From: an uncultured Gammaproteobacteria bacterium
GTDB taxonomy: Bacteria > Patescibacteriota > Patescibacteriia > 2-01-FULL-39-33
Direction: 5' to 3'
DNA: 38,221 bases
NCBI GenBank assembly: GCA_964573235.1
Contig: CAZNIV010000005.1
Span: 1 to 38,221 of the forward strand
Shown here: positions 6,300-29,833 of the stretch, in pieces
Layout: the number at the start of each line of letters is the position of its first letter
Numbering within the stretch: position 1 is the first letter of the stretch
Notes under the pieces: generated by a model
Database searches by the model: none
Seen by the model: the letters and a program-made list of their open reading frames with translations, nothing else
Told to the model about the DNA's origin: nothing
Made by a program: the position numbers and the translations under genes

Positions 6300-6590
6300 C
6301 AAGCTCTTTATCTCACTTTGCACCTTCCATGTGCTGTTTATAGTGTATGACTTATGTACTTAATTGTCAACAATAAGTTATGCACAGGGTTTATTTATTT
6401 TTAATTATAATTAATAGATTATTATAAATAGCTTATTATTATCTTAAATAACTATTTATTCTTAATTTAATCTATTTAATATTATTAAGATGTATTAATA
6501 TACTATCAGATATTATTATATGATTATTATTCTTTATTGTTCTTAATTGTCTAGTAATAAATAATAAATTATTCAAAAATAACGATAACC
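6300..6590. other. Extremely AT-rich (~12-15% GC) 290-bp tract separating the divergent island transcription units
   Basis: Direct reading shows runs of ATTATTA/TTAAT/TAAATA motifs. The tract is flanked by GC-rich coding DNA. Confidence 0.8.
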
Positions 6591-6592
6591 AT

Positions 6593-6697
6593 TGACTTTT
6601 TGCCAAAAATATGCTAGTCTAAACTGTTTGAATCGAACGGGCTTCATGTGAAGTTCGCGGTTATTCAAACAATCAAGTGTCCATTACAAGGAGTTAA
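6593..6697 (+). promoter_or_regulatory. Putative promoter (TTGACT -35; weak TAGTCT -10) and strong RBS (AAGGAG, 9 nt before the ATG) for the SPFH gene
   Basis: TTGACT at 6593-6598. AAGGAG at about 6688-6693, ahead of the ATG at 6703. Confidence 0.35.
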
Positions 6698-6702
6698 TTA
6701 TC

Positions 6703-8571
6703 ATGCCAAGCATCAGCAACACAGCAATCATGTGGATCAGTATTGTAGTGGGAGCGATCGTCCTGATCGCCTGCTACAAACTCCTCCTTCGCCTCTTCGG
6801 CGTGATCATCGTGCCGGAGGACAGCATCGGCATCGTCAACAAGCGATTCGTCATCTTCGGGGCAAATAAAACACTGCCCGATGGTGAAGTGGTCGCCATG
6901 AAAGGCGAGGCCGGCCTGCAAGCCGACACCCTGCCACCGGGACTGCACTTCCTGTATTGGCCATGGCAATACACGATCAGATTCCAAGGGTTTATCACCA
7001 TTGATGACGACAAAATCGGCATCGTGGAAGCTCGTGGCGGTAACGCCCTGACCAACGGTCGCGTGCTCGCCAAGCAGGTGGATTGCGACTCCTTCCAGGA
7101 TGTACGTAAATTCCTCGGCAATGGCGGCCAACGCGGTCCACAAATTGCGGTCATCCCACCGGGAACTTACCGCATCAACACCGAGTTCTTCTCAATTAAC
7201 CCAGCCAGTGTGCTGGAAATCGAGGATAACAAGGTTGGCATCGTCACCGTCAAGGACGGCGAGCCACTGACTACTGGCGAAATTGCCGGTAAGGAAATTG
7301 CTGGACACAACATGTTCCAGGAAGGCGAGAAGTTTATCATTGCCGGCGGCCATCGTGGCCTACAGGAGCAAGTACTTCTGGCTGGACGGTACTTCATCAA
7401 TCCGCGGTTCGCCACGGTGGACACTGTGGACATGACAACCGTGCCGATTGCCAATGTTGGCGTCGTGATTGCTTACGTCGGTGAAACCGGCGTCGACGTC
7501 ACTGGCGACCACTTCAAGCACGGCAACATGGTGAAAAAGGGGCAGAAAGGCGTCTGGGTCGATCCTCTCGATCCGGGAAAATACGCCATTAATATCCTGA
7601 CGCACAAGGTAGAAGCGGTGCCAACTGCCAATATCGTGCTCAACTGGGCCAATGGAAAGACCGAAGCGCACAATCTGGACAAAAACTTGTCCACGATCAC
7701 CGTGCGGTCGGCCGACGGATTCACATTCAATCTGGATGTGAGCCAAATCATACACATCCCGCGCGCCGATGCCCCCAAGGTCATCGCCAGATTCGGCAGT
7801 GTGGCCAACCTGGTCACACAGGTGCTTGAGCCAACCATCGGCAACTACTTCCGCAATACGGCGCAAAACAGTGACGTCATCGACTTCCTGAAGCATCGCA
7901 CGGCGCGACAAGAAGAAGCCAGGGCGGCAATTGCCAAGGCCCTTCAAGAGTATAATGTCGTCGCGGTGGACACCCTAATCGGTGACATCAACCCGCCGGC
8001 AGAACTCATGAAGACGCTCACCGACCGCAAGATCGCAGAGCAAGCGAAGGTAACCTACGACACACAAAAACTCGCGCAGGTTACGAGGCAGGAGCTGGAA
8101 GAAGCGACCGCCCGAGCCAACACCCAGGCGCGCGTCGTCGATGCGGAACGGCAAGTCGCCATCAAAACATTTGAGGCTAACGCCAATATCGAACAGGCCA
8201 AGGGTACGGCCGCAGCCAAGCGTGTGGAAGCAGACGCTGAAGGCTATCGTGTTACCACCATTGGAAACGCCGAGGGTGGTAAGATTGAAGTCATTGGTCT
8301 GGCCGAAGCGAAGGTCACCAAGGCCAAAATTGACTCCATGGAAGCCAACAACTACGCGGCCATCAAGGTGGCGGAAGCTTTGGCTGGTGCCGGCATCAAG
8401 CTGGTTCCCGACGTCATGGTTGTCGGTGGCAATGGCAGCAACGGCGGCGGAACACTGGTCGATGTTCTCCTGGCCAATACGATCAGGGATCAGTTGACCA
8501 GGGCAGCAAGCAAGACGGAAGCGGAAAAAACCACTACCACCGTCGAACCGGGAAAACCGGCCAGCAAGTAA
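6703..8571 (+). CDS. SPFH/band-7 domain membrane protein, flotillin-like (YqiK/FloT-like)
   Basis: 622 aa with an N-terminal TM helix (IMWISIVVGAIVLIACYKLLL) and an SPFH start pattern (VPEDSIGIVNKRFV...PPGLHFLYWPW). The C-terminal Ala/Glu-rich coiled-coil flotillin region (EEATARANTQARVVDAERQ...AEAKVTKAKIDSMEANNYAAIKVAEALAGAGIKLVPDVMVVGG) resembles the C-termini of bacterial flotillins. High-GC codon usage. Confidence 0.7.
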   Translation: MPSISNTAIMWISIVVGAIVLIACYKLLLRLFGVIIVPEDSIGIVNKRFVIFGANKTLPDGEVVAMKGEAGLQADTLPPGLHFLYWPWQYTIRFQGFITIDDDKIGIVEARGGNALTNGRVLAKQVDCDSFQDVRKFLGNGGQRGPQIAVIPPGTYRINTEFFSINPASVLEIEDNKVGIVTVKDGEPLTTGEIAGKEIAGHNMFQEGEKFIIAGGHRGLQEQVLLAGRYFINPRFATVDTVDMTTVPIANVGVVIAYVGETGVDVTGDHFKHGNMVKKGQKGVWVDPLDPGKYAINILTHKVEAVPTANIVLNWANGKTEAHNLDKNLSTITVRSADGFTFNLDVSQIIHIPRADAPKVIARFGSVANLVTQVLEPTIGNYFRNTAQNSDVIDFLKHRTARQEEARAAIAKALQEYNVVAVDTLIGDINPPAELMKTLTDRKIAEQAKVTYDTQKLAQVTRQELEEATARANTQARVVDAERQVAIKTFEANANIEQAKGTAAAKRVEADAEGYRVTTIGNAEGGKIEVIGLAEAKVTKAKIDSMEANNYAAIKVAEALAGAGIKLVPDVMVVGGNGSNGGGTLVDVLLANTIRDQLTRAASKTEAEKTTTTVEPGKPASK

Positions 8572-8599
8572 ACATCCACTTCAAGGATGAATAACCCAT

Positions 8600-8626
8600 A
8601 CGGGCAGACTATCTGCCCGTTTTTTA
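8600..8626 (+). terminator. Rho-independent terminator after the SPFH gene
   Basis: ACGGGCAGA-cta-TCTGCCCGT followed by TTTTTT. Confidence 0.75.
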
Positions 8627-8650
8627 ATTGTAAAATTACTATTATCCTGA

Positions 8651-8679
8651 TTGACAATAGCTATAAAAAGTGATAATCT
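8651..8679 (+). promoter_or_regulatory. Sigma70-like promoter (TTGACA, 17-nt spacer, TAATCT) upstream of the acidic repeat protein. The RBS AAGGAGA lies 8 nt before the ATG at 8744.
   Basis: Read directly: ttgacaatagctataaaaagtgataatct. Confidence 0.5.
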
Positions 8680-8743
8680 TGGCTGTTAGTTCTTTCACAT
8701 TCTATTCATATAAAAACAAGCAAAAACAACAAGGAGAAGCATC

Positions 8744-10423
8744 ATGAGTATCTGGTCAAAACTTTCTTCCTGGCTAGACGCCATCCGCGGTAATCAAAAA
8801 ACGCAACAGTATCGTCCAAGGCCTATGGCCAGTAAAACGGTTGAACGAAAAACCAGCCTCGACCCCATTCCCAAAATGGAAAAAGCGGAACCGACATCAA
8901 GAGAAGAGCAGACTGTCAAAGCTATTTTGGAAACAATCGGCGACGACAACGAAGATTTGGTTAGAAGGGTTTTGGGAAATAAACCGTCCAGGCCCGGAAC
9001 GCCAAGTCTCCGCGAAAAATTCTTCGCGGCCACCACTGTCGAGGAATTACTTGAGATCCGAAAAAAGGTTCAGCTGGAAAGCGAACTGGAACGTCAAGTC
9101 AATCAAAAAATTGACGACCTGCTCCGGCGCGAACTGGAACAATCATCATCAATCGACGAATGTCTGGATGTTTACGAAAAATCACCGCCCAAAAGCGCGA
9201 TCGAGAAATTGGCCGCCGAAAAAATTCTCAGCCTAATTCAGGATGAGAATGACTGCCAAGAAGTTATTGACGAAAGTCCGTCGAACAGTTGGCTGGAAAC
9301 CCAAGCCAAGCAAAAGAAAAAAAAGCTGCTTCTGGAAAAAATCCGCACTGCCACCAACATCGATGACCTGATGGAAATCGATCTGAAAGGTTTTACGGAT
9401 GACCCGGAAATCAATCAGCAATTCAACGCTCAAGTTTTGGCTTTGACCAAGACCACTAAAGATTGCCTAAGCATCTGCGAAGATCATGATCTGAGCGACG
9501 AGCTGAAACTGCAATTACTGACCAAGGCGCTTGAGCTGACCGTCGGTGAAGATGAGTGCGTGGAAATTTTCCAAAACACCGACGATGATTCGCTACAAGA
9601 AAAAGCGGCCATGCGAGCTATCACCATCGCCGAAACCGTAGAAGATCGTTTATCGGCCATCGAAGAAATGTCGATGGATGAAGACTTGAAAGAAAAGTTA
9701 CTGCAAGCAATTTTGGCTACCGCCGAAACTCCTGAAGACTGCCACCGCGTGTTTTTAGCGGCGACATCCGACAGTGAAATCGAAAAGCAAGCGATCAAAA
9801 AAGCCACTGGCCTGGTCAATTCCTTCAGTGAGTGCGAAAAAATCTTTGATGATCAGCTTCACTGGGACGAGGTTCTGGAAAGGCTACTGGAACTGGCCAC
9901 CAACGAAGATGAATACCTGGTCGTCATCGAACAGGCTGAGGGTGAATACGGGAATGATGAAATAGCACAAAAGGCGTATGAGAAATTACTGACCGTGGTC
10001 AACAATTTCGAAAAATGCCAAAAGTACTACTACAACTGCCCCGACGAGCTCAAGCCATGGTTTTTGGAAAAAGCGCTAACCCTGGTTGCCATCATTGAAG
10101 ATTGCAACTGGGTCCATGAGGAATCCGAAAGTGACAGCGATTTGGAAAAATTGGCCGGCGATAAACTCGACGCCATGATTCTGGGAGAACTGCCCACCGC
10201 TAATTCCTTTGACGAATGCCTGGATCTTTTTGAAACCACTCTCACTGATGGTCCAGCAGAATGGCCGACATTCGAAAAAGCACTAGCCCTGACGACAACC
10301 GTCAAGCAATGTGCTCGGCTTTACCAAGTTGCGACCAACTACTACGAAGATCATCAGGAAATGGCCCATCGCTGTATCCGAAAAATGGCGGAAATTATCC
10401 GAATGCAAGGCTTTCGGAATTAA
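8744..10423 (+). CDS. Highly acidic helical-repeat protein with about 13 tandem ~31-residue repeats, each bearing a conserved [DE]-[DE]-C-x-x-[IVL]-[FY] motif. Function unknown.
   Basis: 559 aa and very D/E-rich. Cys at 140, 171, 241, 272, 333, 364, 425, 454, 492 and 523, mostly spaced 29-31 residues apart (two larger steps, 70 and 61, are about two units each). The repeat-opening motifs are IDECLDVY, ENDCQEVI, TKDCLSIC, EDECVEIF, PEDCHRVF, FSECEKIF, FEKCQKYY, IEDCNWVH, FDECLDLF and VKQCARLY. The tails are helix-like (EKALALT, EKLLQAILATA). Degenerate units lack the Cys (VEDRLSAIEE, NEDEYLVVIE). Confidence 0.6.
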   Translation: MSIWSKLSSWLDAIRGNQKTQQYRPRPMASKTVERKTSLDPIPKMEKAEPTSREEQTVKAILETIGDDNEDLVRRVLGNKPSRPGTPSLREKFFAATTVEELLEIRKKVQLESELERQVNQKIDDLLRRELEQSSSIDECLDVYEKSPPKSAIEKLAAEKILSLIQDENDCQEVIDESPSNSWLETQAKQKKKKLLLEKIRTATNIDDLMEIDLKGFTDDPEINQQFNAQVLALTKTTKDCLSICEDHDLSDELKLQLLTKALELTVGEDECVEIFQNTDDDSLQEKAAMRAITIAETVEDRLSAIEEMSMDEDLKEKLLQAILATAETPEDCHRVFLAATSDSEIEKQAIKKATGLVNSFSECEKIFDDQLHWDEVLERLLELATNEDEYLVVIEQAEGEYGNDEIAQKAYEKLLTVVNNFEKCQKYYYNCPDELKPWFLEKALTLVAIIEDCNWVHEESESDSDLEKLAGDKLDAMILGELPTANSFDECLDLFETTLTDGPAEWPTFEKALALTTTVKQCARLYQVATNYYEDHQEMAHRCIRKMAEIIRMQGFRN

Positions 10424-10446
10424 TATTCGCCCAACACCGCCCCACA

Positions 10447-10485
10447 GAGGACTAGCGCATCGACGCTATCCTCTTTTTTATTTTT
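10447..10485 (+). terminator. Rho-independent terminator for the acidic-protein gene
   Basis: GAGGA(c)TAGCG-catcga-CGCTATCCTC stem followed by TTTTTTATTTTT. Confidence 0.65.
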
Positions 10486-10516
10486 CCAAAATAAAAAGCG
10501 GATCCCAATGATCCGC
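10486..10516 (-). terminator. Rho-independent terminator for the convergent 219-aa gene
   Basis: Perfect inverted repeat GCGGATC-ccaat-GATCCGC (10498-10516). On the minus strand it is followed by TTTTTATTTTGG. Confidence 0.65.
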
Positions 10517-20685: not shown

Positions 20686-21717
20686 TTAAACTCTTATTTT
20701 AGCTACTTTCTTTTTATCCGCTAATGGCAAGGAAAAAGAAAATTTTGCACCCTGCCCTTTGCCAGCGCTATCCACCCAAATACGACCACCCATGTTTTCT
20801 ACTAATAATCTAGCGAAATACATACCTAACCCAGTTCCTTCAGTATAAACTTGCATCATACCCTTGCCACGCACAAATTTATTAAACAAACGAGGCAAAT
20901 CATCAGGCTCTATACCAATACCCGTATCCTGACAAGAAAATACCACCGAAGCACCTTCTAAGTGTAAACCAACGGAAATTTCTCCGCTTAGCGTGTATTT
21001 AATCGAGTTATCGATAATATTAGAAATAACTTCTTTAATCTTAGAGGCATCTGCCAAAACTTTAGGCAATTTTTTATCCGGAAAAAATTCCAACTTTAAT
21101 TTTTTATCTTGAGCACGCTTAGCAAAACCATCCCAAATTTCTTTAACCGAATTTTCTAAGTTAATCGGCTGGATATTAAATTCAATACGACCGGCTTCAA
21201 TACGCGAAATATTTAGTAAACTTTCAATTAAATCCACCAAATGAACGGAGGCAGTATTTACCTTAGTTAAATTTTCTTTAATCAATTTTGGCAATTTACC
21301 AAAACTACCTTCTAACATCATCGAGACATAACCACGAATAACCGTTAACGGTGTGCGTAACTGATGAGAGGCAATTGATAAAAATTCCGACTTGGCATCA
21401 TCTAATCGTTGCAATTCTTTATTAGCCCCTTCTAACTCTTTAGAAGCTTTGGCTAATTTATTGGCCAATTTTTCTAATTCTTCACGACGCTTGATTTCTT
21501 TTAACGATGATCTAATCACTAAAACAGTAAAAATCAAACTGATTACAAAAACCCCTAATTTATTTAACAAATCCTCTAACGAAAAAGCAAAAAATATTTC
21601 TATAAAATTAATCAGAAGCAATATGCCAATAAAAATTTCCGTGGATACAACTTTTATTTCAAATAATTTAGTTTTGGACATGGTATAAGCAATAAGCAAA
21701 ATATAAGCTGAACTCAA
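20686..21717 (-). CDS. Sensor histidine kinase (2 TM, HisKA + HATPase_c)
   Basis: 343 aa with the H-box FLSIASHQLRTPLTVIRGY, N/G1/G2 boxes (IIDNSIKYT, DTGIGI, GTGLGM) and an N-terminal hydrophobic segment. Confidence 0.88.
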   Translation of the reverse strand: MSSAYILLIAYTMSKTKLFEIKVVSTEIFIGILLLINFIEIFFAFSLEDLLNKLGVFVISLIFTVLVIRSSLKEIKRREELEKLANKLAKASKELEGANKELQRLDDAKSEFLSIASHQLRTPLTVIRGYVSMMLEGSFGKLPKLIKENLTKVNTASVHLVDLIESLLNISRIEAGRIEFNIQPINLENSVKEIWDGFAKRAQDKKLKLEFFPDKKLPKVLADASKIKEVISNIIDNSIKYTLSGEISVGLHLEGASVVFSCQDTGIGIEPDDLPRLFNKFVRGKGMMQVYTEGTGLGMYFARLLVENMGGRIWVDSAGKGQGAKFSFSLPLADKKKVAKIRV

Positions 21718-21823: not shown

Positions 21824-23641
21824 CTAATCATACTCGCTTTTTTGCTCGTTATACAACTTAGCGTAAACTTCGCTTCGCGCCATTAATTCCTCATGAGTGC
21901 CATTTTCTCTTACGCGTTTATTGTCTAACAATATAATCCTATCGGCGCGCCTTAAGGTAGCGAAATTATGAGAAATAAGCAAAACTGATTTTTCTTTAGG
22001 CAAATTTTCAATATTACGAAAGATTCTTGAGGCCGAAGGCGCATCCACGGCTGCTGTTGGTTCATCCAAAATATAAACCTTGGCATCACGATAAAAAACA
22101 CGCGCTAAGGCCATCTTCTGCTTCTCTCCCTTAGATAATTCCTCGCCACTAAACTCCACGCCGATCATAGTGTCATATTGCTTTGACCAAGACTCAATAT
22201 ACTCATTAGCTGTACCTAGTTTAGCAGCGTTTTTAACATCATTAATATTTATTTTTCTATCAGCATCACCAAAAGCAATGGATTCTTTAGCAGAAAAGTT
22301 AAAGGTAGAATAATCCTGAGGCAAAACGCCAACTAATTTCCACCAATCGTGCAAATCAAGTTCACGCAAATTAACACCATTAATTAAAATTTCACCCGTA
22401 CTAGGGTCATGAATTCTGAGTAATAATCTTAAAATAGTTGTTTTACCAGCACCATTATGACCAATAAAAGCAATCTTATCTCCCGGATTAATCGTAAAAG
22501 ATAATTCCTCTAAAACTGTTTCGGTAGTATTGGGATATTTAAAAGAAACATTCTTGAATTCAATTTTAGGCGTTACTGAAAGTTTTAATTTCTTTGGATT
22601 TTTTGAACTTTCAACGACTGGATTAACATGAAAAACATCATAAATATCAGAAGCATAAAGATTTCTTTCTAATTGTCTGGCCAAGCTTTTTAACAATTCG
22701 GTAGCCGCACTATTTAAAGCATTTAAAGAACTAAATAAAAAAACCACCGTACCAATAGTGATCAACCCCTTCATTGATTGACTAATGGCTAAAAACAAAG
22801 AGGCGTATAAACCAGCTGCTGCCAACACTTCGGCGCCTAATTGTAACCAGGTTCGTTTTTTTTCTAGCTTAATTTGTTGATGAAAAAAATTATCTAAAAT
22901 ACCTTTCATCCGACCAAAAAATAAATTTTGCAACTTAAATAACTTAGATTCAATTACGCTATATTTATTGGTAAAATATTTTTTATACTCAGCATATAAT
23001 CGCTGATCGCGACCATTAGAACCCCAAATATTCCATAAGCCACCACCATAAGATAATTCAATTAAAAATATTGGGATAGCGGTTACGACAGTAATCACAA
23101 AAATACGCCAATCAATCAACATAATAGCAATAGCGATGGAGGAAAAGGCGATAACCCGTCTTAAATTTTCGTAACTAGATTCTAGAATATTAAGAATAGG
23201 CCAAACGCCATTATTAAAAGCGCGCATACTTAAATCCTGATACGCCGGGTCTTCAATATGGGCAATATCCAACCCCCCACGCTTTTTATAAGAAAATAAC
23301 TCAATAAAATTATTAAACTTAATATAATAATATTTATCAGTATAATTATAGATAACGCCGATCAAATCAGGCGTTAAGCTTATGCTAATATAAATAGCTA
23401 ACATAAACCAAACGGTTTCACCATTACCCGTTTTAACAAAACTAACGATAGAATCAATTAGATGACCGAAAACCTTAGAAGTAATCAAGGGAAAAATACC
23501 CTGAGCCACAGATATAACCAACATCACAGTAGCCGCAATTGGCATATCACTAAAAAGTAAGCGCCCAAAATAAACCAGATTTCTAATCAGGTTTTTAAAG
23601 TTAATTAAACTCTTACCATTATCCTCTTTCTTTTCGGCCAT
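21824..23641 (-). CDS. ABC transporter, fused permease/ATP-binding protein (exporter, MsbA/ABCB-like)
   Basis: 605 aa with an N-terminal 6-TM region, Walker A GHNGAGKTT, signature LSKGEKQKMALARV, Walker B ILDEPTAAVD and an H-loop (LLISHN). Confidence 0.88.
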   Translation of the reverse strand: MAEKKEDNGKSLINFKNLIRNLVYFGRLLFSDMPIAATVMLVISVAQGIFPLITSKVFGHLIDSIVSFVKTGNGETVWFMLAIYISISLTPDLIGVIYNYTDKYYYIKFNNFIELFSYKKRGGLDIAHIEDPAYQDLSMRAFNNGVWPILNILESSYENLRRVIAFSSIAIAIMLIDWRIFVITVVTAIPIFLIELSYGGGLWNIWGSNGRDQRLYAEYKKYFTNKYSVIESKLFKLQNLFFGRMKGILDNFFHQQIKLEKKRTWLQLGAEVLAAAGLYASLFLAISQSMKGLITIGTVVFLFSSLNALNSAATELLKSLARQLERNLYASDIYDVFHVNPVVESSKNPKKLKLSVTPKIEFKNVSFKYPNTTETVLEELSFTINPGDKIAFIGHNGAGKTTILRLLLRIHDPSTGEILINGVNLRELDLHDWWKLVGVLPQDYSTFNFSAKESIAFGDADRKININDVKNAAKLGTANEYIESWSKQYDTMIGVEFSGEELSKGEKQKMALARVFYRDAKVYILDEPTAAVDAPSASRIFRNIENLPKEKSVLLISHNFATLRRADRIILLDNKRVRENGTHEELMARSEVYAKLYNEQKSEYD

Positions 23642-23756: not shown

Positions 23757-24752
23757 ATGACATCGCCAAGATTTTTTGGTAAAATGACAGAAACATTCGA
23801 TATGGCAAATTACTTCTCAAAAATTGAAAAAATCAAAAAATCAAACTCATTTCTTAGTGGTGAGAACTTCGAAGTTGCCTCTAATGGCACTCATTATAAA
23901 GTTTTTATTTCGAGTAAATATGTTATTCGGTTTAGGGATGATAATCAAAAATTACTGCAAAGGGAGGCTAAATTATTAAAAAAACTTAATCACCCCCTGA
24001 TACCTAGCATAATATTAGTAACAAAAATAGGTCAATCAACCGCCATGATCGAAAATCGACTCCCCGGAGAAACTATAAATAAAGTATGGGGGAACCTTTC
24101 TGAAACAAAAAAAACAAATATTACCAATCAAGTTGTTATTTTTTTACAAAATATTAAGTCAATTGACGCAAAAAATATTCAAAAAAACGCCTATTCAATA
24201 ACTACCGGAAAAAAATACCATAATTTTTTAGATCTTATTACAGACAAAATAAATCAAAAGGTTTTAAAGATAAAAAAAAATAAATCCACTAGAACTATTT
24301 TGACCAGCTTGTTGGCTATTATCAATAATACTAAAAATAAAAAACTTTTCACTGACAAAAATACAATGGACCTGGTTCATGGCGATCTAATTATCCATAA
24401 CCTGTTAACCGACGGCAAAAATCTAACAGGAGTTCTTGATTGGGAACTATCATTAATTGGAGATTCTGATTATGATTTATTCCGACTATTTTATTACCAA
24501 GAATGCGCCAAGGCCTACGAACAACAAAAGACAGACGAATCTTTTGAGATTGACTACATGAATAAATTAGTTACCACGATTTTAAAATCAAACCTTATTA
24601 AAAATAAAAAGGTATTTTATAAAAAATACCAAATAGCGCGCGCTATTTTTATTATCAATGCTCTTTATTGGGCAACAAATTCAAATGCTCCCAAAAAAAA
24701 TACTAAAGAGCTTATAGCACAATTTAATATAAAAAGCGGGGCTTCAGCATAA
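23757..24752 (+). CDS. Phosphotransferase (APH / choline-kinase-like) family protein
   Basis: 331 aa with a Brenner-like catalytic motif LVHGDLIIHNLL and the D-[WF]-E motif (VLDWELSLIGDSDYD). AT-rich host-like composition. Confidence 0.7.
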   Translation: MTSPRFFGKMTETFDMANYFSKIEKIKKSNSFLSGENFEVASNGTHYKVFISSKYVIRFRDDNQKLLQREAKLLKKLNHPLIPSIILVTKIGQSTAMIENRLPGETINKVWGNLSETKKTNITNQVVIFLQNIKSIDAKNIQKNAYSITTGKKYHNFLDLITDKINQKVLKIKKNKSTRTILTSLLAIINNTKNKKLFTDKNTMDLVHGDLIIHNLLTDGKNLTGVLDWELSLIGDSDYDLFRLFYYQECAKAYEQQKTDESFEIDYMNKLVTTILKSNLIKNKKVFYKKYQIARAIFIINALYWATNSNAPKKNTKELIAQFNIKSGASA

Positions 24753-24767
24753 AATGCCTAACCCCGC
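24731..24767 (-). terminator. Rho-independent terminator downstream of the small peptide gene
   Basis: On the minus strand, GCGGGGTTAGGCAT-ttt-ATGCTGAAGCCCCGC is followed by TTTTTATATT. Confidence 0.7.
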
Positions 24768-24777
24768 GGACGCCCGC

Positions 24778-24873
24778 CTACTTACAGCCGGTACGTTTTC
24801 CGTCGAAAGCTTTGCCAACTGCCAATGGCGCCACTTTGTCGATCTTGATCAATACGATTTTGATCTTTTTCAT
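24778..24873 (-). CDS. 31-aa Lys-rich peptide MKKIKIVLIKIDKVAPLAVGKAFDGKRTGCK, a candidate RiPP precursor or substrate of the adjacent radical-SAM/SPASM enzyme
   Basis: Not in the ORF track (below 60 aa). Minus-strand ATG at 24873..24871, preceded by a strong RBS GGAGGTGA (24888..24881) that overlaps the rSAM stop. TAG stop at 24780..24778. Followed directly by a terminator. Confidence 0.55.
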   Translation of the reverse strand: MKKIKIVLIKIDKVAPLAVGKAFDGKRTGCK

Positions 24874-24889
24874 GAACTATCACCTCCTT

Positions 24890-26347
24890 TCACAAGCCAC
24901 ACACTGAACGACCACTTGCCACAGTCACTCCATTTGAGCGAATATAATCCACGGCAAGAGCTCGCGTAACTTGTCGATAAAAATCACACATATCAGCAAA
25001 GAGATTGTGCCCACTTTCCTTAGAGAGACGAGAAACAACCTCTCTGGTCACGTGACACTGACCACCACACAAACCCTCGAGAATACAACCATAACAACAT
25101 TGATCGGCTCCAGGAAAACGCTCATTGACCAATTTGAGCAATTTCCCTTCTTTCTGGAAAATCTGGTCAAACTGATCGACGTGACCGATCTGAGAGGTCG
25201 CATGACTGCAGACCTTAATACTGCCATCAACATTGAATTCCAAAGACTTTCCTTCAACGGCAGCACAAAAAGAACGACTCTCCAGCAAAAGATTCCCGCC
25301 AGTGAGGTTCCTAAAGGCACTATCCCATGTTCCGAAAAAATCGATACCCCTTTCATTAGCATACCTCTTCAGGCGCATGAGCTTTTCCACTCTTTCGCCC
25401 GTCGAAATACCAACGAGGGCAATGAGATCATAGTCGAAGGCTATGGAAGTCATGCCTCTTTCAGTGGCAAGATCTATGATATCAGTATCAACTAACTCAA
25501 AGTTACCATTAGTAACCGTGATACTGAAACCATCCAATGGATAGCCAACCTCATTCAAGAGATCAAACTTCTCCAGTATCAAATCGAATGTTCCTTGCCC
25601 GCCCTTCGTGACACGAATCGCATCATTGGCCTTTGCCAATCCATCAAGAGAAGTAGCGATACGCACCTTGTGTTTTTTAAACACGCTTGCTATTTCCCTC
25701 GTCATCAAAACGAGATTGGTGTTAATGGCAAAATCAAAAGTCAAATCTGTCATGCTTTCGCAATAACAAAGGACCTTTTCAATTACCGGCCAGTTAATTA
25801 ATGGCTCGGCGTTGCCAAAATGAATCTTACAACGCTTAATGCCCTGAGCTCTCATTAAGGCAATATAATGATCAACACAATTTTTAGCGGTTTCAAAGCT
25901 CATATTAAGCTTGGTCACCGACTTTTGATAAGTCGGTAGAATTTCTTTCTCACTACAGCTTGACTGCTGAAAATGAATGCAGTGCTTGCAACCAAAGTTA
26001 CACGAATCACTAATTGCAAGACCCATTCGATCAACACTTTTTTGGGATTCTACTATTAACAGGCGAATCTCCCTTTGCTGTTGCAAAAACTTTTTCTCAT
26101 CAAATCCTGGCTCAATAAGAAAAAATATTTCAGAGAACTCATTGATGACATCGGATGGGTCTCCATCACAATCATCCAAGGCCCTTGAAATTGTTATTGG
26201 ATTCTTGAAAAGGCTTAAGAAATCCAATCCTTCGCGATTCACAATTCTTGGATTACCATAGAGTGAATGATAAACCATTGCTGCTCCCGATTCGGAATCA
26301 AGCACGGTGCGAACATAAGAGGACAACTTATAAATACGGTCCGACAT
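24890..26347 (-). CDS. Radical SAM / SPASM-domain enzyme with an N-terminal RRE (PqqD-like) extension. Putative peptide-modifying maturase.
   Basis: 485 aa. The Cx3Cx2C motif CNFGCKHC is at ~residues 116-123. An auxiliary-cluster SPASM region is at the C-terminus (CAAVEG...VCSH...CCYGCILEGLCGGQCH). The ~110-aa N-terminal extension (YKLSSYVRTVLDSESGAAMVYHSLYGNPRIVNREGLDFLSLF) resembles RiPP recognition elements. Confidence 0.8.
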   Translation of the reverse strand: MSDRIYKLSSYVRTVLDSESGAAMVYHSLYGNPRIVNREGLDFLSLFKNPITISRALDDCDGDPSDVINEFSEIFFLIEPGFDEKKFLQQQREIRLLIVESQKSVDRMGLAISDSCNFGCKHCIHFQQSSCSEKEILPTYQKSVTKLNMSFETAKNCVDHYIALMRAQGIKRCKIHFGNAEPLINWPVIEKVLCYCESMTDLTFDFAINTNLVLMTREIASVFKKHKVRIATSLDGLAKANDAIRVTKGGQGTFDLILEKFDLLNEVGYPLDGFSITVTNGNFELVDTDIIDLATERGMTSIAFDYDLIALVGISTGERVEKLMRLKRYANERGIDFFGTWDSAFRNLTGGNLLLESRSFCAAVEGKSLEFNVDGSIKVCSHATSQIGHVDQFDQIFQKEGKLLKLVNERFPGADQCCYGCILEGLCGGQCHVTREVVSRLSKESGHNLFADMCDFYRQVTRALAVDYIRSNGVTVASGRSVCGL

Positions 26348-26391
26348 TTTCTACCTCCATACTGTTTTTCATTGTTAAGGAACGACCATTA

Positions 26392-26420
26392 ATTCTATAT
26401 TAAACACTCTTAAATGTCAA
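26392..26420 (-). promoter_or_regulatory. Sigma70-like promoter (TTGACA, 17-nt spacer, TAGAAT) for the rSAM-peptide cassette. A second TTGACA lies at 26470..26465 without a clear -10.
   Basis: Read on the minus strand: TTGACATTTAAGAGTGTTTAATATAGAAT. The RBS GGAGGT lies 7 nt before the ATG at 26347. Confidence 0.5.
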
Positions 26421-26520: not shown

Positions 26521-27141
26521 TTAAATATTTTTAATTATTTTTTCGATATTAGGATAATATTTTTCAAAAGCCAAATCGATAGACTGCGTATCAATTGACA
26601 TTTTTTGTATGATATTCAATTCGGGGTCGATTTTTTGAAAAATTAAATCAACAAGTCTTTCTTTTACCCAGTGATCAATCTTATTTTCATTAATAAAAGA
26701 TTGAATGGATAGATGAACTATTTCGTGAATAGTATTTCTAAAAAGGGCCACTTCCGATTTGTTTTGAAAATTCAAAATAACCTGATTGGGTAAATTATAA
26801 CTTCCACCAACACCATATTTTGTAAGCTGTGTAATATAAACTTCCTCTTGTTTTAATAATGTTTCTTTAAAATATTTTTCTAGTTTCGGTGCAAATTTAA
26901 ACCACTGCTCACTAATAATACTTTTTATCTTCTCATAATCTTTTGAATCATATTCTTCTTCGGCAATATCAAATAAAATACTACCGGCAGTTTTCAAATC
27001 AATTTCCTCTAACTTTTTACCTGCTGGCAATTTTATCCATTTAGAATAACCGTTTTCAAGAAACCAATCGGCTTTATCTAAGGTGTATTTTATTCGCTCT
27101 TTTTCATATTTAAGAGAGTATTTTATATCTAAATTTATCAT
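26521..27141 (-). CDS. Hypothetical protein with an HExxH motif (possible zincin-like metallopeptidase)
   Basis: 206 aa. NTIHEIVHLS contains HEIVH. No other family signature was recognised. AT-rich host-like composition. Confidence 0.4.
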   Translation of the reverse strand: MINLDIKYSLKYEKERIKYTLDKADWFLENGYSKWIKLPAGKKLEEIDLKTAGSILFDIAEEEYDSKDYEKIKSIISEQWFKFAPKLEKYFKETLLKQEEVYITQLTKYGVGGSYNLPNQVILNFQNKSEVALFRNTIHEIVHLSIQSFINENKIDHWVKERLVDLIFQKIDPELNIIQKMSIDTQSIDLAFEKYYPNIEKIIKNI

Positions 27142-27207: not shown

Positions 27208-27582
27208 TTATTGTTTTACTTCTAAGATTTTTCTCACTTTCTCAACCACATCCTTTGGCAAAACTTCCGTTTTGGCCCAAAAGTCAGTCACGCCCATCTT
27301 TTTCGCTTTTTCCATGACCTCACGCTTAATCAGATTGCTTAAAAATACAAAAGGAATATCTTTGGTTTTAGGATCGGCCTTAAATAATTTAAGCGTACCC
27401 ATACCATCAATCACCTCCATTAACATATCACAAATCACAATATGCGGATTGGATTTTTTAGCCAACTCTAATCCCGTGTAGCCATCCGAAGCCCACAATA
27501 GCTCCATATCATACAACTGAAAAGCCATTTTATACATTTCAATCTGGTCATTATCATCTTCAATCAATAAGGCTCTAATCAT
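27208..27582 (-). CDS. Single-domain response regulator (receiver)
   Basis: 124 aa with LLIEDD and the phospho-acceptor D in IVICDMLM. Confidence 0.85.
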   Translation of the reverse strand: MIRALLIEDDNDQIEMYKMAFQLYDMELLWASDGYTGLELAKKSNPHIVICDMLMEVIDGMGTLKLFKADPKTKDIPFVFLSNLIKREVMEKAKKMGVTDFWAKTEVLPKDVVEKVRKILEVKQ

Positions 27583-27592
27583 ATTTTTGAGA

Positions 27593-29833
27593 TTATTTTT
27601 TAACCCCTTTAATTTGCTTAATTTCCGTCTGACAATTATCTTTACATACTTGCAAAGAAACCGTAAAAACCGTGCCCTTACCTAGTTCACTTTCAAAAGA
27701 AATTTTACCACCCTGATGCGCTTCGATAATCTTTTTTACGATAAATAAACCTAAGCCCGAACCATCCGTATACATATTAACGGCATTAGACGCGCGCGAG
27801 AATTTATCAAAAATCTTTTTCTGTTCCTCCTTAGGAATACCAATACCAGTATCGACAATTTTAATAACCACCCTTCCTTTTTCCTGAGTCAATATCATCT
27901 TAACCGAACCGCTCTTAGTATATTTAATGGCGTCATCTACTAAATTAAATATGGCTTGTTCAAAAAAATCAGCATCCGTCAAAACCGTGCTAGTTGACTT
28001 ATTGGGCTTTTCTAAAATTAATTGCAATCCACGCTTTTGCGCTTCGTCAATATTATCGTTATAAACTTCCTGCAACACATCTTCAATCGCCACTGGACGC
28101 AAATTTTCTGGATCCAAAGTAAAATCATCGGTATCCATTTCACTGGCGCGTAAAATATCCGAGATAATTACATTAAGTTTTTTAGCCTTCCAAAAAATAT
28201 TATCAAAAAACTTTTGTTGTTGCTCTTTGGGTAATTTATCCATCGAACCCTCACGAAACATCGAAATGGTGCCCAAAATTACCGACACTGGCGTTTTTAA
28301 TTGATGAGAGGCAATATCCAAAAATTCCGAGCGCATTTTAAGTAACTTCTTTAAATGATCTGCTTGTTTGGTTAAATCTAGCGTTTGCTCATCCACTTTT
28401 TGCTTTAAAGTACTAGCAAATTCCTGCACTTCTTCATATAAACGCGTATTATCAATCGCAATACCTAATTGACTAGAAATAACTTCTAATATGCGCAAAT
28501 CTTCTTGAGAAAAAGGATTGCCCGAACGCTTAGAGCCCATGGCAATTAAGCCAATCATTTTATATTTAGAAAACAAAGGGATAACCAAAGCGATATCTAA
28601 ATTGCTTAATTCATAAAGTAAATCAACACTGCGTGGTTGATATTCACCACTTTCATAACGAGAGCGCATTTCATCAATAACACGAATTTCACGAGAAGTT
28701 TCAAAATAAAGTGGCAAAACTTTCTCCTTGCCCTTAACAAATTTCTTAAGCACTACTGGATCAAAACCGCGCTGCTCCACAATCTTTAGTTGACTATTTT
28801 TATCGGCTAAAACAATCGAAATACAAGTATAATGAAAAGCATCTTCTAATTCTTTAATAACCGCATGAAGAATCGCTTCAGAGTTACCAATCGAGGAAGT
28901 AATGTCGTTGATTTTTTCTAATAAAATTGATGGATTATAAACTTTGGCAAATAAAAAGCGATCTGTAACGCGTTCAAGAATCGATTTTAATGGCGGAAAC
29001 AAAATTGTTACCACAATAGCCACAATCACAGCACTGATATAACGAGCATTATTACCGGATACTCTTTCTACCAAGAAACTAATAGCGGAAGTAAGAATCA
29101 AAACCAATGAACCCACTACTACTACCAGAACAGTAAATACTGATGAGCGCTTCACCAGCATGCGAATATCCATCAAGCGATAACGGGTAATAGCATAGGT
29201 GATAAAAATAATATAGAAGAAAACTAAATACGTTCCAAAAGGATATATTTGAATAAACTGAGGAAAAAAATTGGTAACACCACCACCAGCACCGGCAATC
29301 AAAGCAAATAAAACATATCTCGCTTGATTCTTTTTTATACCAGTTGCCTTTCCTAAAAATCTAATAAGTAAAAAGGCGGAATAAGAAAAATAAATTACAA
29401 AATAGGCAAAATACCAATAATATAAAACTCCTGGCTCAACCCAATAATTAAAGCCTGAGCTTGGCGGAACGCCCTTAACAAAAAGGGTTCCATAAAAATT
29501 AAAAAAGATAAATAAAGCGCTAAGAGCATACCCGAGATTAATAACTACCTTCTGCACCTTATTCCTGCCCAATAAAACGCAAACGAAATGTAAAAAAAAT
29601 GTCGGAACCACAATAGCTCCCAAATATAATATCTTATTCCAGAAAAGAGCCATATTATAGCTGTCGGAACTAACCTCCATGCCTAATCCAAGACTCCACA
29701 ATCCAGTACTAAGACCAACAAAAAGCCATAACTTATTTAATAAAGAATTTTTATTTTTGAAATAAACCAAAAAACCCAATATTATAGAAAATATTGCTGT
29801 CACTATCGACGAAATTGCAAAAGATGAAAACAT
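27593..29833 (-). CDS. Sensor histidine kinase with an N-terminal 7TM sensor, GAF domain, HisKA and HATPase_c
   Basis: 746 aa. There are about 7 hydrophobic helices in the first 270 residues, then a GAF-like region, the H-box FLDIASHQLKTPVSVILG and ATPase boxes (VDDAIKYT, DTGIGI, GSGLGL). Confidence 0.88.
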   Translation of the reverse strand: MFSSFAISSIVTAIFSIILGFLVYFKNKNSLLNKLWLFVGLSTGLWSLGLGMEVSSDSYNMALFWNKILYLGAIVVPTFFLHFVCVLLGRNKVQKVVINLGYALSALFIFFNFYGTLFVKGVPPSSGFNYWVEPGVLYYWYFAYFVIYFSYSAFLLIRFLGKATGIKKNQARYVLFALIAGAGGGVTNFFPQFIQIYPFGTYLVFFYIIFITYAITRYRLMDIRMLVKRSSVFTVLVVVVGSLVLILTSAISFLVERVSGNNARYISAVIVAIVVTILFPPLKSILERVTDRFLFAKVYNPSILLEKINDITSSIGNSEAILHAVIKELEDAFHYTCISIVLADKNSQLKIVEQRGFDPVVLKKFVKGKEKVLPLYFETSREIRVIDEMRSRYESGEYQPRSVDLLYELSNLDIALVIPLFSKYKMIGLIAMGSKRSGNPFSQEDLRILEVISSQLGIAIDNTRLYEEVQEFASTLKQKVDEQTLDLTKQADHLKKLLKMRSEFLDIASHQLKTPVSVILGTISMFREGSMDKLPKEQQQKFFDNIFWKAKKLNVIISDILRASEMDTDDFTLDPENLRPVAIEDVLQEVYNDNIDEAQKRGLQLILEKPNKSTSTVLTDADFFEQAIFNLVDDAIKYTKSGSVKMILTQEKGRVVIKIVDTGIGIPKEEQKKIFDKFSRASNAVNMYTDGSGLGLFIVKKIIEAHQGGKISFESELGKGTVFTVSLQVCKDNCQTEIKQIKGVKK

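Follow-up and report, generated by a model that had tools for sequence, protein, structure and literature searches.

A radical SAM enzyme, a 31-residue precursor-like peptide and an APH-fold kinase form a candidate peptide-modifying cassette in Patescibacteria

A conserved three-gene cassette

The stretch of DNA analyzed here (hereafter the window) comprises positions 1 to 38,221 of contig CAZNIV010000005.1, from an uncultured bacterium placed by GTDB in the Patescibacteriota. Comparison of the window with related loci points to a unit of three genes that is conserved across Patescibacteria. They encode a radical S-adenosylmethionine (rSAM) enzyme with a predicted RRE (recognition element of RiPPs, peptides that are ribosomally synthesized and modified post-translationally) and a SPASM domain, a 31-residue precursor-like peptide and a kinase of the APH fold. 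That this unit is a peptide-modifying three-gene system is highly probable. The best explanation we can offer in detail, for which we see an even chance, is a RiPP-type cassette in which the peptide core carries a thioether and a threonine phosphorylated by the kinase. A sequence-only reading of the window had described the enzyme and the peptide as a self-contained pair, and this part of it does not hold, as the conserved unit has the kinase as a third gene.

In the window, the 485-residue enzyme is encoded at 24890..26347 (-), and its TGA stop codon is followed by a gap of 16 nt and the ATG of the peptide gene. The gap contains the Shine-Dalgarno sequence GGAGGTGA (24880..24887, -), which lies 6 nt before the ATG as read from the sequence, and the same AAAGGAGGTGA element sits before the peptide in related loci. 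The peptide, MKKIKIVLIKIDKVAPLAVGKAFDGKRTGCK, is encoded at 24778..24873 (-) and ends at a TAG stop codon. The kinase gene (23757..24752, +) is convergent with the other two. To compare this arrangement, 5 genome and 76 metagenome loci encoding relatives of the enzyme were collected and are referred to here by L numbers.

A promoter and a terminator of its own had also been proposed for the unit, and both gained comparative support. A predicted sigma-70-like promoter (TTGACA-17 nt-TAGAAT, 26392..26420, -) matches the consensus at 11 of 12 positions upstream of the rSAM gene. Of 28 distinct related loci, 16 have an element ahead of the enzyme gene that matches at 10 or more of the 12 positions, in most cases with TTGACA intact, as opposed to 5% of shuffled sequences. 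Directly after the TAG stop codon of the peptide, RNA folding predicts a 13-bp bulged hairpin followed by U5 (24731..24767, -; centroid -21 kcal/mol), which resembles an intrinsic terminator and was passed over by a simple terminator scanner because its loop exceeds the rule of the scanner. Hairpins of the form GGGGTTA...TAACCCC followed by T-runs lie at the equivalent place in L001, L002, L004 and L005. The 3' end of the convergent kinase gene overlaps this shared terminator, and an Rfam scan of the window reported no RNA family.

The peptide gene is under purifying selection

Conservation of the small ORF beside homologs of the enzyme, on which the sequence-only reading hinged, came out in its favor. 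In 33 of the 34 loci whose enzyme is 54% or more identical and whose downstream sequence extends for 130 nt or more, an intact ORF of 30-37 residues directly follows the enzyme gene; in the window the ORF, with a ribosome-binding site (RBS) ahead of it, begins 16 nt past the enzyme, just as had been read. The exception, L037 (981..1196), is a 1.2-kb metagenome contig in which the RBS and the leader SKKIAVKKIKIAKVKPMTSGPTF are kept and the ORF then switches abruptly to GC-rich unrelated sequence. This locus is most probably a chimera produced in assembly and not a case of natural variation.

Across 29 distinct DNA versions of the gene, the C-terminal G-[KR]-R-T-x-C-K is invariant or nearly so at the protein level. 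The invariant G, K, R, T, C and K residues are each specified by two to six synonymous codons (arginine by CGA, CGG, CGT, CGC, AGG and AGA), and the stop is fixed in position even though it may be TAA, TAG or TGA. The synonymous variety under invariant residues and the fixed stop position indicate that the ORF is translated and under purifying selection. Judged from its recurrence and these codon patterns, the small ORF lies far beyond chance and is a real gene, present as one copy per locus. Some gene callers predict it, and no public source names it.

The consensus peptide is MKKIxIKKIKIAKVxPLxSGASFxGKRTGCK, with a net charge of +7. Residues 1-24 (24802..24873, -) are the presumed leader and residues 25-31, GKRTGCK (24781..24801, -), the presumed core. 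The single C-terminal cysteine noticed earlier is the only one in the peptide and is the invariant cysteine of GKRTxCK. The emphasis once placed on the single aspartate is not borne out, as it falls at a variable position that may hold P, G, F, L, S or D. A Cys-Asp thioether of the PapB or QhpD type therefore cannot be the conserved chemistry, and that crosslink was rejected.

The division into an N-terminal leader and a C-terminal core follows from the sister families, where related leaders (KKPLP..., PLPKI...) are joined to differing cores. The sister peptides keep a lysine-rich N terminus, often with a PLP element, and change the C terminus. It becomes ...MCGGR[TS]TCC[KHN] in L054, L055, L056, L064 and L065, ...AKRATCQRRG in L043, ...RNKTCKC in L057 and ...KKGKDASCT in L039. 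By sequence, nearly all of these predicted cores pair a threonine or serine with a cysteine beside basic residues.

The enzyme belongs to an unnamed GTW clade related to TigE

The enzyme has the hallmarks of the radical SAM superfamily, namely a CX3CX2C motif (C116-x3-C120-x2-C123, CNFGCKHC; 25979..26002, -), which is invariant in the alignment and in all loci, and a match to PF04055 (38.6 bits against a cutoff of 29.5). Its C-terminal SPASM domain (24986..25267, -) contains seven cysteines in the pattern C361-x13-G375-x4-C380, C418-x2-C421-x5-C427-x3-C431 and C454. The pattern, of which the sequence-only reading had seen the cysteine cluster together with CNFGCKHC, is complete and invariant in 18 homologs of 47-68% identity. 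This region matches the TigE SPASM domain in the alignment, and its seven cysteines are conserved across 150 superfamily representatives, as are all ten cluster cysteines.

Neither the Pfam SPASM model (PF13186) nor, at E values up to 0.1, the PqqD model (PF05402) reported a match to the window enzyme, so that Radical_SAM is its only Pfam match. The PqqD model does work in this setting, since it matches the second rSAM enzyme of L039. Peptide maturases that form thioethers head the 44 NCBIfam families listed for the enzyme (PapB 88 bits, QhpD 87, RumMC 80, CcpM 78, SCIFF 73), with scores that lie 4- to 10-fold below the respective cutoffs (340 for PapB, 720 for RumMC, 500 for CcpM and 425 for SCIFF). 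Since all NCBIfam scores are below cutoff, the enzyme falls in no curated family. The earlier description of the enzyme as uncharacterized stands: beyond the generic Radical_SAM, no Pfam or NCBIfam family and no paper was found for it. About 207 homologs were identified, mostly from Patescibacteria.

Among solved structures, a profile search placed TigE first by a wide interval (8VPO, E 1.6e-57, profile positions 3-465 against chain residues 4-458; 198 bits), followed by CteB (E 1.4e-21; 80 bits) and then ChlB and anSME. TigE is a radical SAM methyl-cyclopropylglycine synthase. Its crystal structure contains, besides the rSAM barrel and the SPASM domain, an RRE of the winged helix-turn-helix type at residues 3-85 (Lien et al. 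2024, PMC10878394). The AlphaFold2 model of the window enzyme (pTM 0.82) aligns with TigE over 477 columns at 22% identity in Foldseek (TM 0.76/0.81). Its first 100 residues (26048..26347, -), modeled at a pLDDT of about 90, comprise strands 5-8, 12-16, 23-27 and 31-36 and helices 38-48, 53-58 and 65-73. The homology and the modeled fold shared with TigE support the prediction of this N-terminal domain as an RRE. Of the "PqqD-like RRE" proposed from sequence, the RRE thus survives, and the likeness to PqqD finds no counterpart in the Pfam searches. The net charge of these residues is -6, with a mean of -3 among homologs.

An enzyme that grouped with non-RiPP SPASM proteins would have pointed to a different function, namely a chance ORF beside an anSME-like enzyme that acts on a protein. 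There are weak matches of this kind (NCBIfam TIGR03942, 60.5 bits against a cutoff of 349; PDB 4K36, E 7e-6), and the silence of the Pfam PqqD and SPASM models would suit such an enzyme. However, anSME aligns only from profile position 113 and lacks the RRE-like N-terminal domain, and the window enzyme groups with the RRE-bearing RiPP maturases TigE and then CteB. No sulfatase or C/S-x-P/A-x-R substrate was found nearby. The conservation of the small ORF, its codon-level selection, its fixed stop and its conserved RBS effectively refute this explanation, to which we give almost no weight.

The relation to TigE bears directly on the chemistry. In the cyclopropyl synthases a GYW motif is strictly conserved, and its tyrosine ligates auxiliary cluster I (Aux I) and is indispensable for the activity of TigE (PMC10878394). 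In the window enzyme, the GYW of TigE aligns opposite G339-T340-W341 (25325..25333, -), and FFGTW is found in every close relative; the G-x-W stands about 20 residues before the first SPASM cysteine in both enzymes. An exhaustive profile search of 1.84 billion representatives gave 330 clusters at E≤1e-30, in which TigE ranks approximately 139th. Among the top 150 representatives, clades differ in the residue between G and W of this motif (GYW 25, GFW 23, GTW 20, GSW 9, GMW 7, and others). Since the required tyrosine is replaced by an invariant threonine, the window enzyme belongs to a GTW sister clade and is most likely not a cyclopropyl synthase.

It could nevertheless be argued that the enzyme performs C-C chemistry like that of TigE and TvgB on the Ile/Val residues of the N-terminal half, with the GKRTxCK tail serving for recognition or as a follower. 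No other characterized relative is nearly as close as TigE, and cyclopropyl synthases act on Val/Ile in repeated motifs, with TIGSVS or TVGG repeated in TigB and TvgA (PMC10878394). The peptide has a loose I-x-I-x-K quasi-repeat (IEIKK-IKIAK-V) in its leader-like half, and its Ile/Val positions are kept in 24-27 of the 29 versions. However, these positions tolerate V, T, M and K, while the C-terminal heptapeptide is invariant and contains no Val or Ile. The exchange of leaders and cores among the sister families and the loss of the GYW tyrosine also speak against such chemistry. In addition, approximately 140 clusters nearer than TigE carry many different residues at the G-x-W position, so that function probably differs by clade. 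C-C chemistry on the N-terminal half is therefore an improbable alternative. TigE and TvgB remain the closest characterized relatives and share all three domains with the window enzyme. They differ from it in the Aux I-ligating tyrosine, in cores that repeat with conserved Ile/Val as opposed to a single C-terminal GKRTxCK, and in lacking both the invariant Cys157 and the obligatory kinase partner of the window family.

Cys157 (25877..25879, -) lies in the rSAM domain and is specific to the family. It is invariant in the 18 homologs, down to 47% identity, and is replaced by alanine in most of the wider GxW superfamily and by tyrosine in TigE. It is no cluster ligand of the known motifs and might serve as a hydrogen-atom donor, as in rSAM epimerases, or as an extra ligand.

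The enzyme's C-terminal tail (last ~15 codons, 24890..24940, -) often resembles the substrate core. In the window it reads ...GRSVCGL, comparable to KRTGCK of the peptide, and tails such as ...NRQTCTL and ...KRHTCGV occur elsewhere (L001, L004, L011, L012, L014, L016, L023, L024). A strict core-like motif is present in 8 of 26 distinct tails, and several more are close. In the TigE crystal the C-terminal tail occupies the RRE groove (PMC10878394), and by this analogy the tail of the window enzyme could be an autoinhibitory mimic of substrate or leader, or even a self-substrate.

An APH-fold kinase accompanies the enzyme

The kinase matches Pfam APH (47 bits). Its catalytic loop H208-G-D210-x4-N215 (24378..24401, +), an HGDxxxxN motif, and D228-W-E230 (24438..24446, +) are invariant among homologs. 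The homologs begin at residue 16 of the window ORF, which makes Met16 (23802) its probable true start. The gene was found in all 27 loci with at least 1.2 kb of sequence after the enzyme and in 36 loci altogether, directly after the peptide. Clustering of all 609 neighboring ORFs from 82 loci, combined with tblastn searches using the window proteins, showed that only the enzyme (64 loci) and kinase (36 loci) families recur. The flanking genes differ between loci, so that over evolutionary time the cassette behaves as a unit independent of its neighbors. The kinase family comprises 238 members compared to 207 for the enzyme, and all of its named members are from Patescibacteria. Among the matches listed, 32 pairs of kinase and rSAM share a contig when paired by equal record size. 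Pairwise identities of enzymes and kinases co-vary (Mantel r 0.76, a value reached in 0 of 2000 permutations), although shared vertical descent would be expected to give the same correlation.

The best PDB relatives of the kinase are APH(2'') and APH(4) (E 8e-11 by profile; TM ~0.6 and 13% identity by fold, AlphaFold2 model), a generic match that yields no clue to the substrate. The kinase is basic overall, but residues 226-270, just past the catalytic motifs, are conserved as an acidic stretch (net charge -8, range -11 to -5). APH-like kinases are known to act on peptides: CaoK, LxmK and TvaC, which work with a HopA1-like lyase (CaoY, LxmY and TvaD, respectively), phosphorylate Ser/Thr residues in RiPP precursors (PMC9486802). 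As in these class V lanthipeptide and thioamitide systems (LanK and LanY), an APH-family kinase with intact HGDxxxxN and D-x-E motifs stands in the window beside a precursor with conserved Thr and Cys. The likeness to LanK is one of APH family and gene context. The partner of the kinase differs, as it is a LanY lyase in those systems and a radical SAM enzyme in the window. That the kinase acts on the threonine of the peptide is a proposal to which we assign an even chance or somewhat less.

Several observations weigh against this role and would fit a simpler arrangement, in which the enzyme and the peptide form a two-gene RiPP system and the kinase provides self-immunity or detoxification in the way of antibiotic kinases, acts on another cationic small molecule or is a relic of synteny. 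In the close family the kinase gene is convergent and not co-transcribed; it occupies the other strand and is transcribed separately. In structure and sequence, the kinase is nearest to the kinases of aminoglycoside and hygromycin resistance, so that its substrate could be something other than the peptide. The known APH-type RiPP kinases work with a HopA1-like lyase, and neither a lyase of this type nor a cyclase or cysteine decarboxylase is conserved with the cassette in the neighbor clustering of the 82 loci. In addition, no rSAM-kinase fusion was present among the 150 superfamily representatives.

The two-gene explanation nevertheless has to account for a kinase that is kept in 27 of 27 loci while all other neighbors vary. 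In the distant L054 and L055, with an enzyme 30% and a kinase 32-33% identical to those of the window, the kinase gene is co-directional and immediately follows the peptide. Its retention there makes inherited synteny alone unlikely, and a role in immunity would still make the kinase part of the system. The invariant threonine among basic residues and the acidic patch of the kinase also fit direct action on the core. We regard the two-gene alternative as unlikely, though it deserves more weight than the other alternatives.

A proposed route to a modified core

In the three-gene cassette that we favor, the Lys/Ile-rich N-terminal part of the peptide (MKKIxIKKIKIAKVxPL) would serve as the leader and dock as a β-strand on the acidic RRE, which would bring the C-terminal G-K-R-T-x-C-K into the active site formed by the rSAM cluster and two SPASM auxiliary clusters. 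Given that the Aux I-ligating tyrosine of TigE is a threonine in the GTW motif, Aux I would be left with a free or weakly held coordination site. The thiolate of the invariant cysteine, second from the C terminus, could then bind Aux I, as in thioether-forming enzymes such as CteB, whose three-cysteine Aux I reportedly binds the substrate cysteine. The 5'-deoxyadenosyl radical would take a hydrogen from Thr-4, Arg-5 or Lys-6 (counted from the C terminus), and a small thioether ring within the peptide would result. Phosphorylation of the invariant threonine hydroxyl by the kinase would be either a final decoration or an activation step, and the acidic patch that the kinase has beside its catalytic motifs would suit the cationic KRTxCK core. 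The charges of the three partners (peptide +7, RRE -6, kinase residues 226-270 -8) fit this scheme. Either of the outcomes suggested by the sequence-only reading, a thioether from the single cysteine or a crosslink involving lysine, is plausible on the sequence. For the thioether itself, which we propose by analogy to known maturases, our confidence stays tentative and somewhat short of even.

We infer the division into leader and core, the thioether chemistry, the substrate of the kinase and the order of events, and a number of points besides those on the kinase count against them. The chemistry is read from the genes, and the open Aux I site is deduced from one substitution and from the reported CteB structure. 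TigE, the nearest characterized enzyme, makes C-C bonds (cyclopropanes) and not thioethers. In L049, L051 and L070 the putative peptide, an unvalidated ORF ending in ...PLPEYPGILSY, contains no cysteine even though the enzyme has GTW. Finally, neither a protease that might remove the leader nor a transporter or exporter is conserved with the cassette by neighbor clustering in the 82 loci.

A more speculative variant would let the kinase and the rSAM enzyme cooperate in a chemistry that is new to RiPPs. β-(Phosphatoxy)alkyl radicals fragment readily. If the threonine were phosphorylated and a radical generated beside the phosphate ester, the cysteine could capture the intermediate to give a methyllanthionine-like or other Thr-Cys crosslink that requires no lyase. 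This is a long shot. If it were true, the product would be a small peptide or cofactor of invariant sequence found throughout Patescibacteria, which might be sensed by the two-component systems that lie beside the cassette in a minority of loci.

Relation to other RiPP systems and significance

The thioether maturases CteB (thermocellin; PDB 5WGG), PapB (freyrasin), QhpD and those of sactipeptides and ranthipeptides resemble the window system in their RRE-rSAM-SPASM enzymes and in short precursors with cysteine in the core. CteB is the second-best solved structure for the window enzyme by profile and by fold, and a non-ligating threonine would allow an Aux I of the CteB type. The precursors of these systems contain several cysteines, whereas the window peptide has one, without a CxxxD/E motif or a conserved aspartate. 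The window system also differs in having the precursor downstream of the enzyme, a kinase in the unit and scores 4- to 10-fold below the cutoffs of the known families.

Mycofactocin (MftA/B/C) and PQQ (PqqA/D/E) share with the window system a short, single-copy precursor with an invariant C-terminal core, an RRE-dependent rSAM-SPASM enzyme and wide conservation. This logic raises the possibility that the peptide gives rise to a cofactor or a cell-associated small molecule, with leader removal by housekeeping peptidases and a phosphate handle added by the kinase. The core is invariant over about 50% divergence of the enzyme, in Falkowbacteria, Kuenenbacteria, Taylorbacteria and Wolfebacteria, and there is a single precursor copy and no conserved exporter, protease or immunity gene. 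The cassette also persists in reduced genomes, and its GC content tracks that of the host, which suggests long residence. However, the rSAM-SPASM fold is all that the enzyme shares with those of mycofactocin and PQQ, which are not among its top NCBIfam matches, and the core sequences are unrelated. No accessory genes of the MftD/E/F or PqqB/C/F kind and no redox or cofactor-using partner are conserved among the neighbors in the 82 loci. The 24-residue leader is itself well conserved and strongly cationic, as would equally befit a signaling or membrane-active peptide. In a minority of loci, among them the window, two-component genes and ABC exporters adjoin the cassette and hint at an extracellular role. 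A cofactor-like product thus seems rather improbable.

The three-gene cassette has no described counterpart in the sources searched. Searches of 8 million full texts, which include few subscription journals, returned nothing specific on the motif, on RiPPs combining rSAM enzymes and kinases or on RiPPs of the candidate phyla radiation (CPR, Patescibacteria), and no precedent for a radical SAM maturase with an obligatory APH-fold kinase and no lyase. In Pfam, NCBIfam, PADLOC and public collections, no source names the three products beyond "radical SAM protein" or "phosphotransferase". The cassette is best read as a new rSAM-RiPP family distinguished by an unusual obligatory kinase, an invariant single-cysteine core and an altered Aux I ligand. 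Since many rSAM-RiPP families are uncharacterized, a further one is less of a surprise, but its wide occurrence in Patescibacteria, the invariant core and the kinase make this one more surprising.

Patescibacteria have tiny genomes and very little known secondary metabolism, and yet the three-gene unit is kept across several candidate phyla. Its retention with an unchanging core in such genomes suggests a product with a specific conserved role and not a strain-level bacteriocin. The GTW family also offers a natural test of the influence of the Aux I ligand on reaction outcome in the large GxW superfamily, in which most clades (GFW, GTW, GSW, GMW and others) are without an assigned function, and the pairing of kinase and rSAM enzyme could reveal a new mix of phosphorylation and radical chemistry. 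Because the system is small (~2.6 kb, a 31-residue substrate and one candidate site), it should be unusually tractable for heterologous reconstitution.

Sister families and neighboring genes

In L054 (1089..3572), L055, L056, L064 and L065 the enzyme is about 30% identical to that of the window and has GCW or GFW, and the precursors contain three cysteines. The peptides of L054 and L055 end in CGGRTTCCK and are followed by the kinase, and in L064 a response regulator and a histidine kinase follow the peptide instead of the APH-fold kinase. L039 (4534..14253) encodes a GTW relative of 48% identity within a classic RiPP cluster that also encodes an M16 peptidase, a pair of GNAT acetyltransferases, an ABC exporter and another rSAM-SPASM enzyme, this one with a PqqD domain. 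This cluster further includes a transporter of the AI-2E family, a 37-residue peptide ending in KKGKDASCT and a transglutaminase-like protein, and it lacks the kinase.

Other GxW relatives are fused to Peptidase_MA_2. The fusions detected (P0350, P0248, P0285, P0292, P0316, P0379) comprise an Orn/Lys/Arg decarboxylase joined to an rSAM domain (940 residues), an rSAM domain joined to a CxxCxxCC domain (690 residues) and an rSAM-Peptidase_MA_2-rSAM-SPASM arrangement (~1120-1160 residues), and the screen of 150 representatives also gave a second rSAM domain as a fusion partner. Literature searches turned up no characterized example of these architectures. The RiPP cluster of L039 and the Peptidase_MA_2 fusions suggest that the clade is a RiPP clade, of which the lineage in the window represents a minimal form that includes a kinase.

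Directly upstream of the cassette, an ORF of 206 residues (26521..27141, -) contains HEIVH, an HExxH motif, and has no significant Pfam match. Its homolog in L017 also lies beside the rSAM gene and gave a weak zinc-peptidase hint (DUF5700, E 0.013). It was rejected as a leader peptidase of the family, since it has no significant peptidase match and adjoins the cassette in the window and L017 only, and it may be either unrelated or a leader peptidase of sporadic occurrence. A 605-residue protein of the ABC exporter type (21824..23641, -) is encoded just beyond the kinase, and homologs near the enzyme were found only in L034 and L039. Two-component genes occur within a few kb of the cassette in nine loci (window, L005, L011, L020, L022, L032, L045, L048 and L064). 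Those of the window (27208..29833, -, and 20686..21717, -) encode a 7TM-GAF histidine kinase, a stand-alone receiver and a second histidine kinase. The ABC exporter, response regulator and histidine kinase were rejected as members of the cassette, as they are not conserved across loci. Two-component neighbors nevertheless seem frequent for such small genomes and could hint at a signaling role or at regulation. PADLOC reported only generic similarity of the rSAM core to pVip (27 bits) and negligible matches for the kinase.

Base composition of the cassette and the window

The sequence-only reading had noted that the cassette is enriched in GC and had taken this as a sign of horizontal acquisition. 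The enrichment of the enzyme gene is real (about 42-43% GC, compared to 30-35% in the flanks). However, the same offset is found in 24 loci, with averages relative to the flanks of +5.0 GC points for the enzyme gene and -5.5 for the kinase gene, and both genes track the GC content of the host. In L024, for example, the values are 0.319 for the enzyme, 0.242 for the kinase and 0.269 for the background, and in L021 they are 0.514, 0.388 and 0.448. As the offset is a property of the gene families, GC content gives no evidence of recent acquisition, and horizontal transfer argued from it was rejected.

Elsewhere in the window, a GC-rich island at ~6500..10500 (50-56% against ~35%) shows a strong positive AT skew. 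It contains ORFs for a 622-residue SPFH/Band-7 protein (6703..8571, +) and for a 559-residue protein without a Pfam match (8744..10423, +), has no Rfam match and is not rRNA. As a candidate for foreign DNA, this island is stronger than the rSAM cassette.

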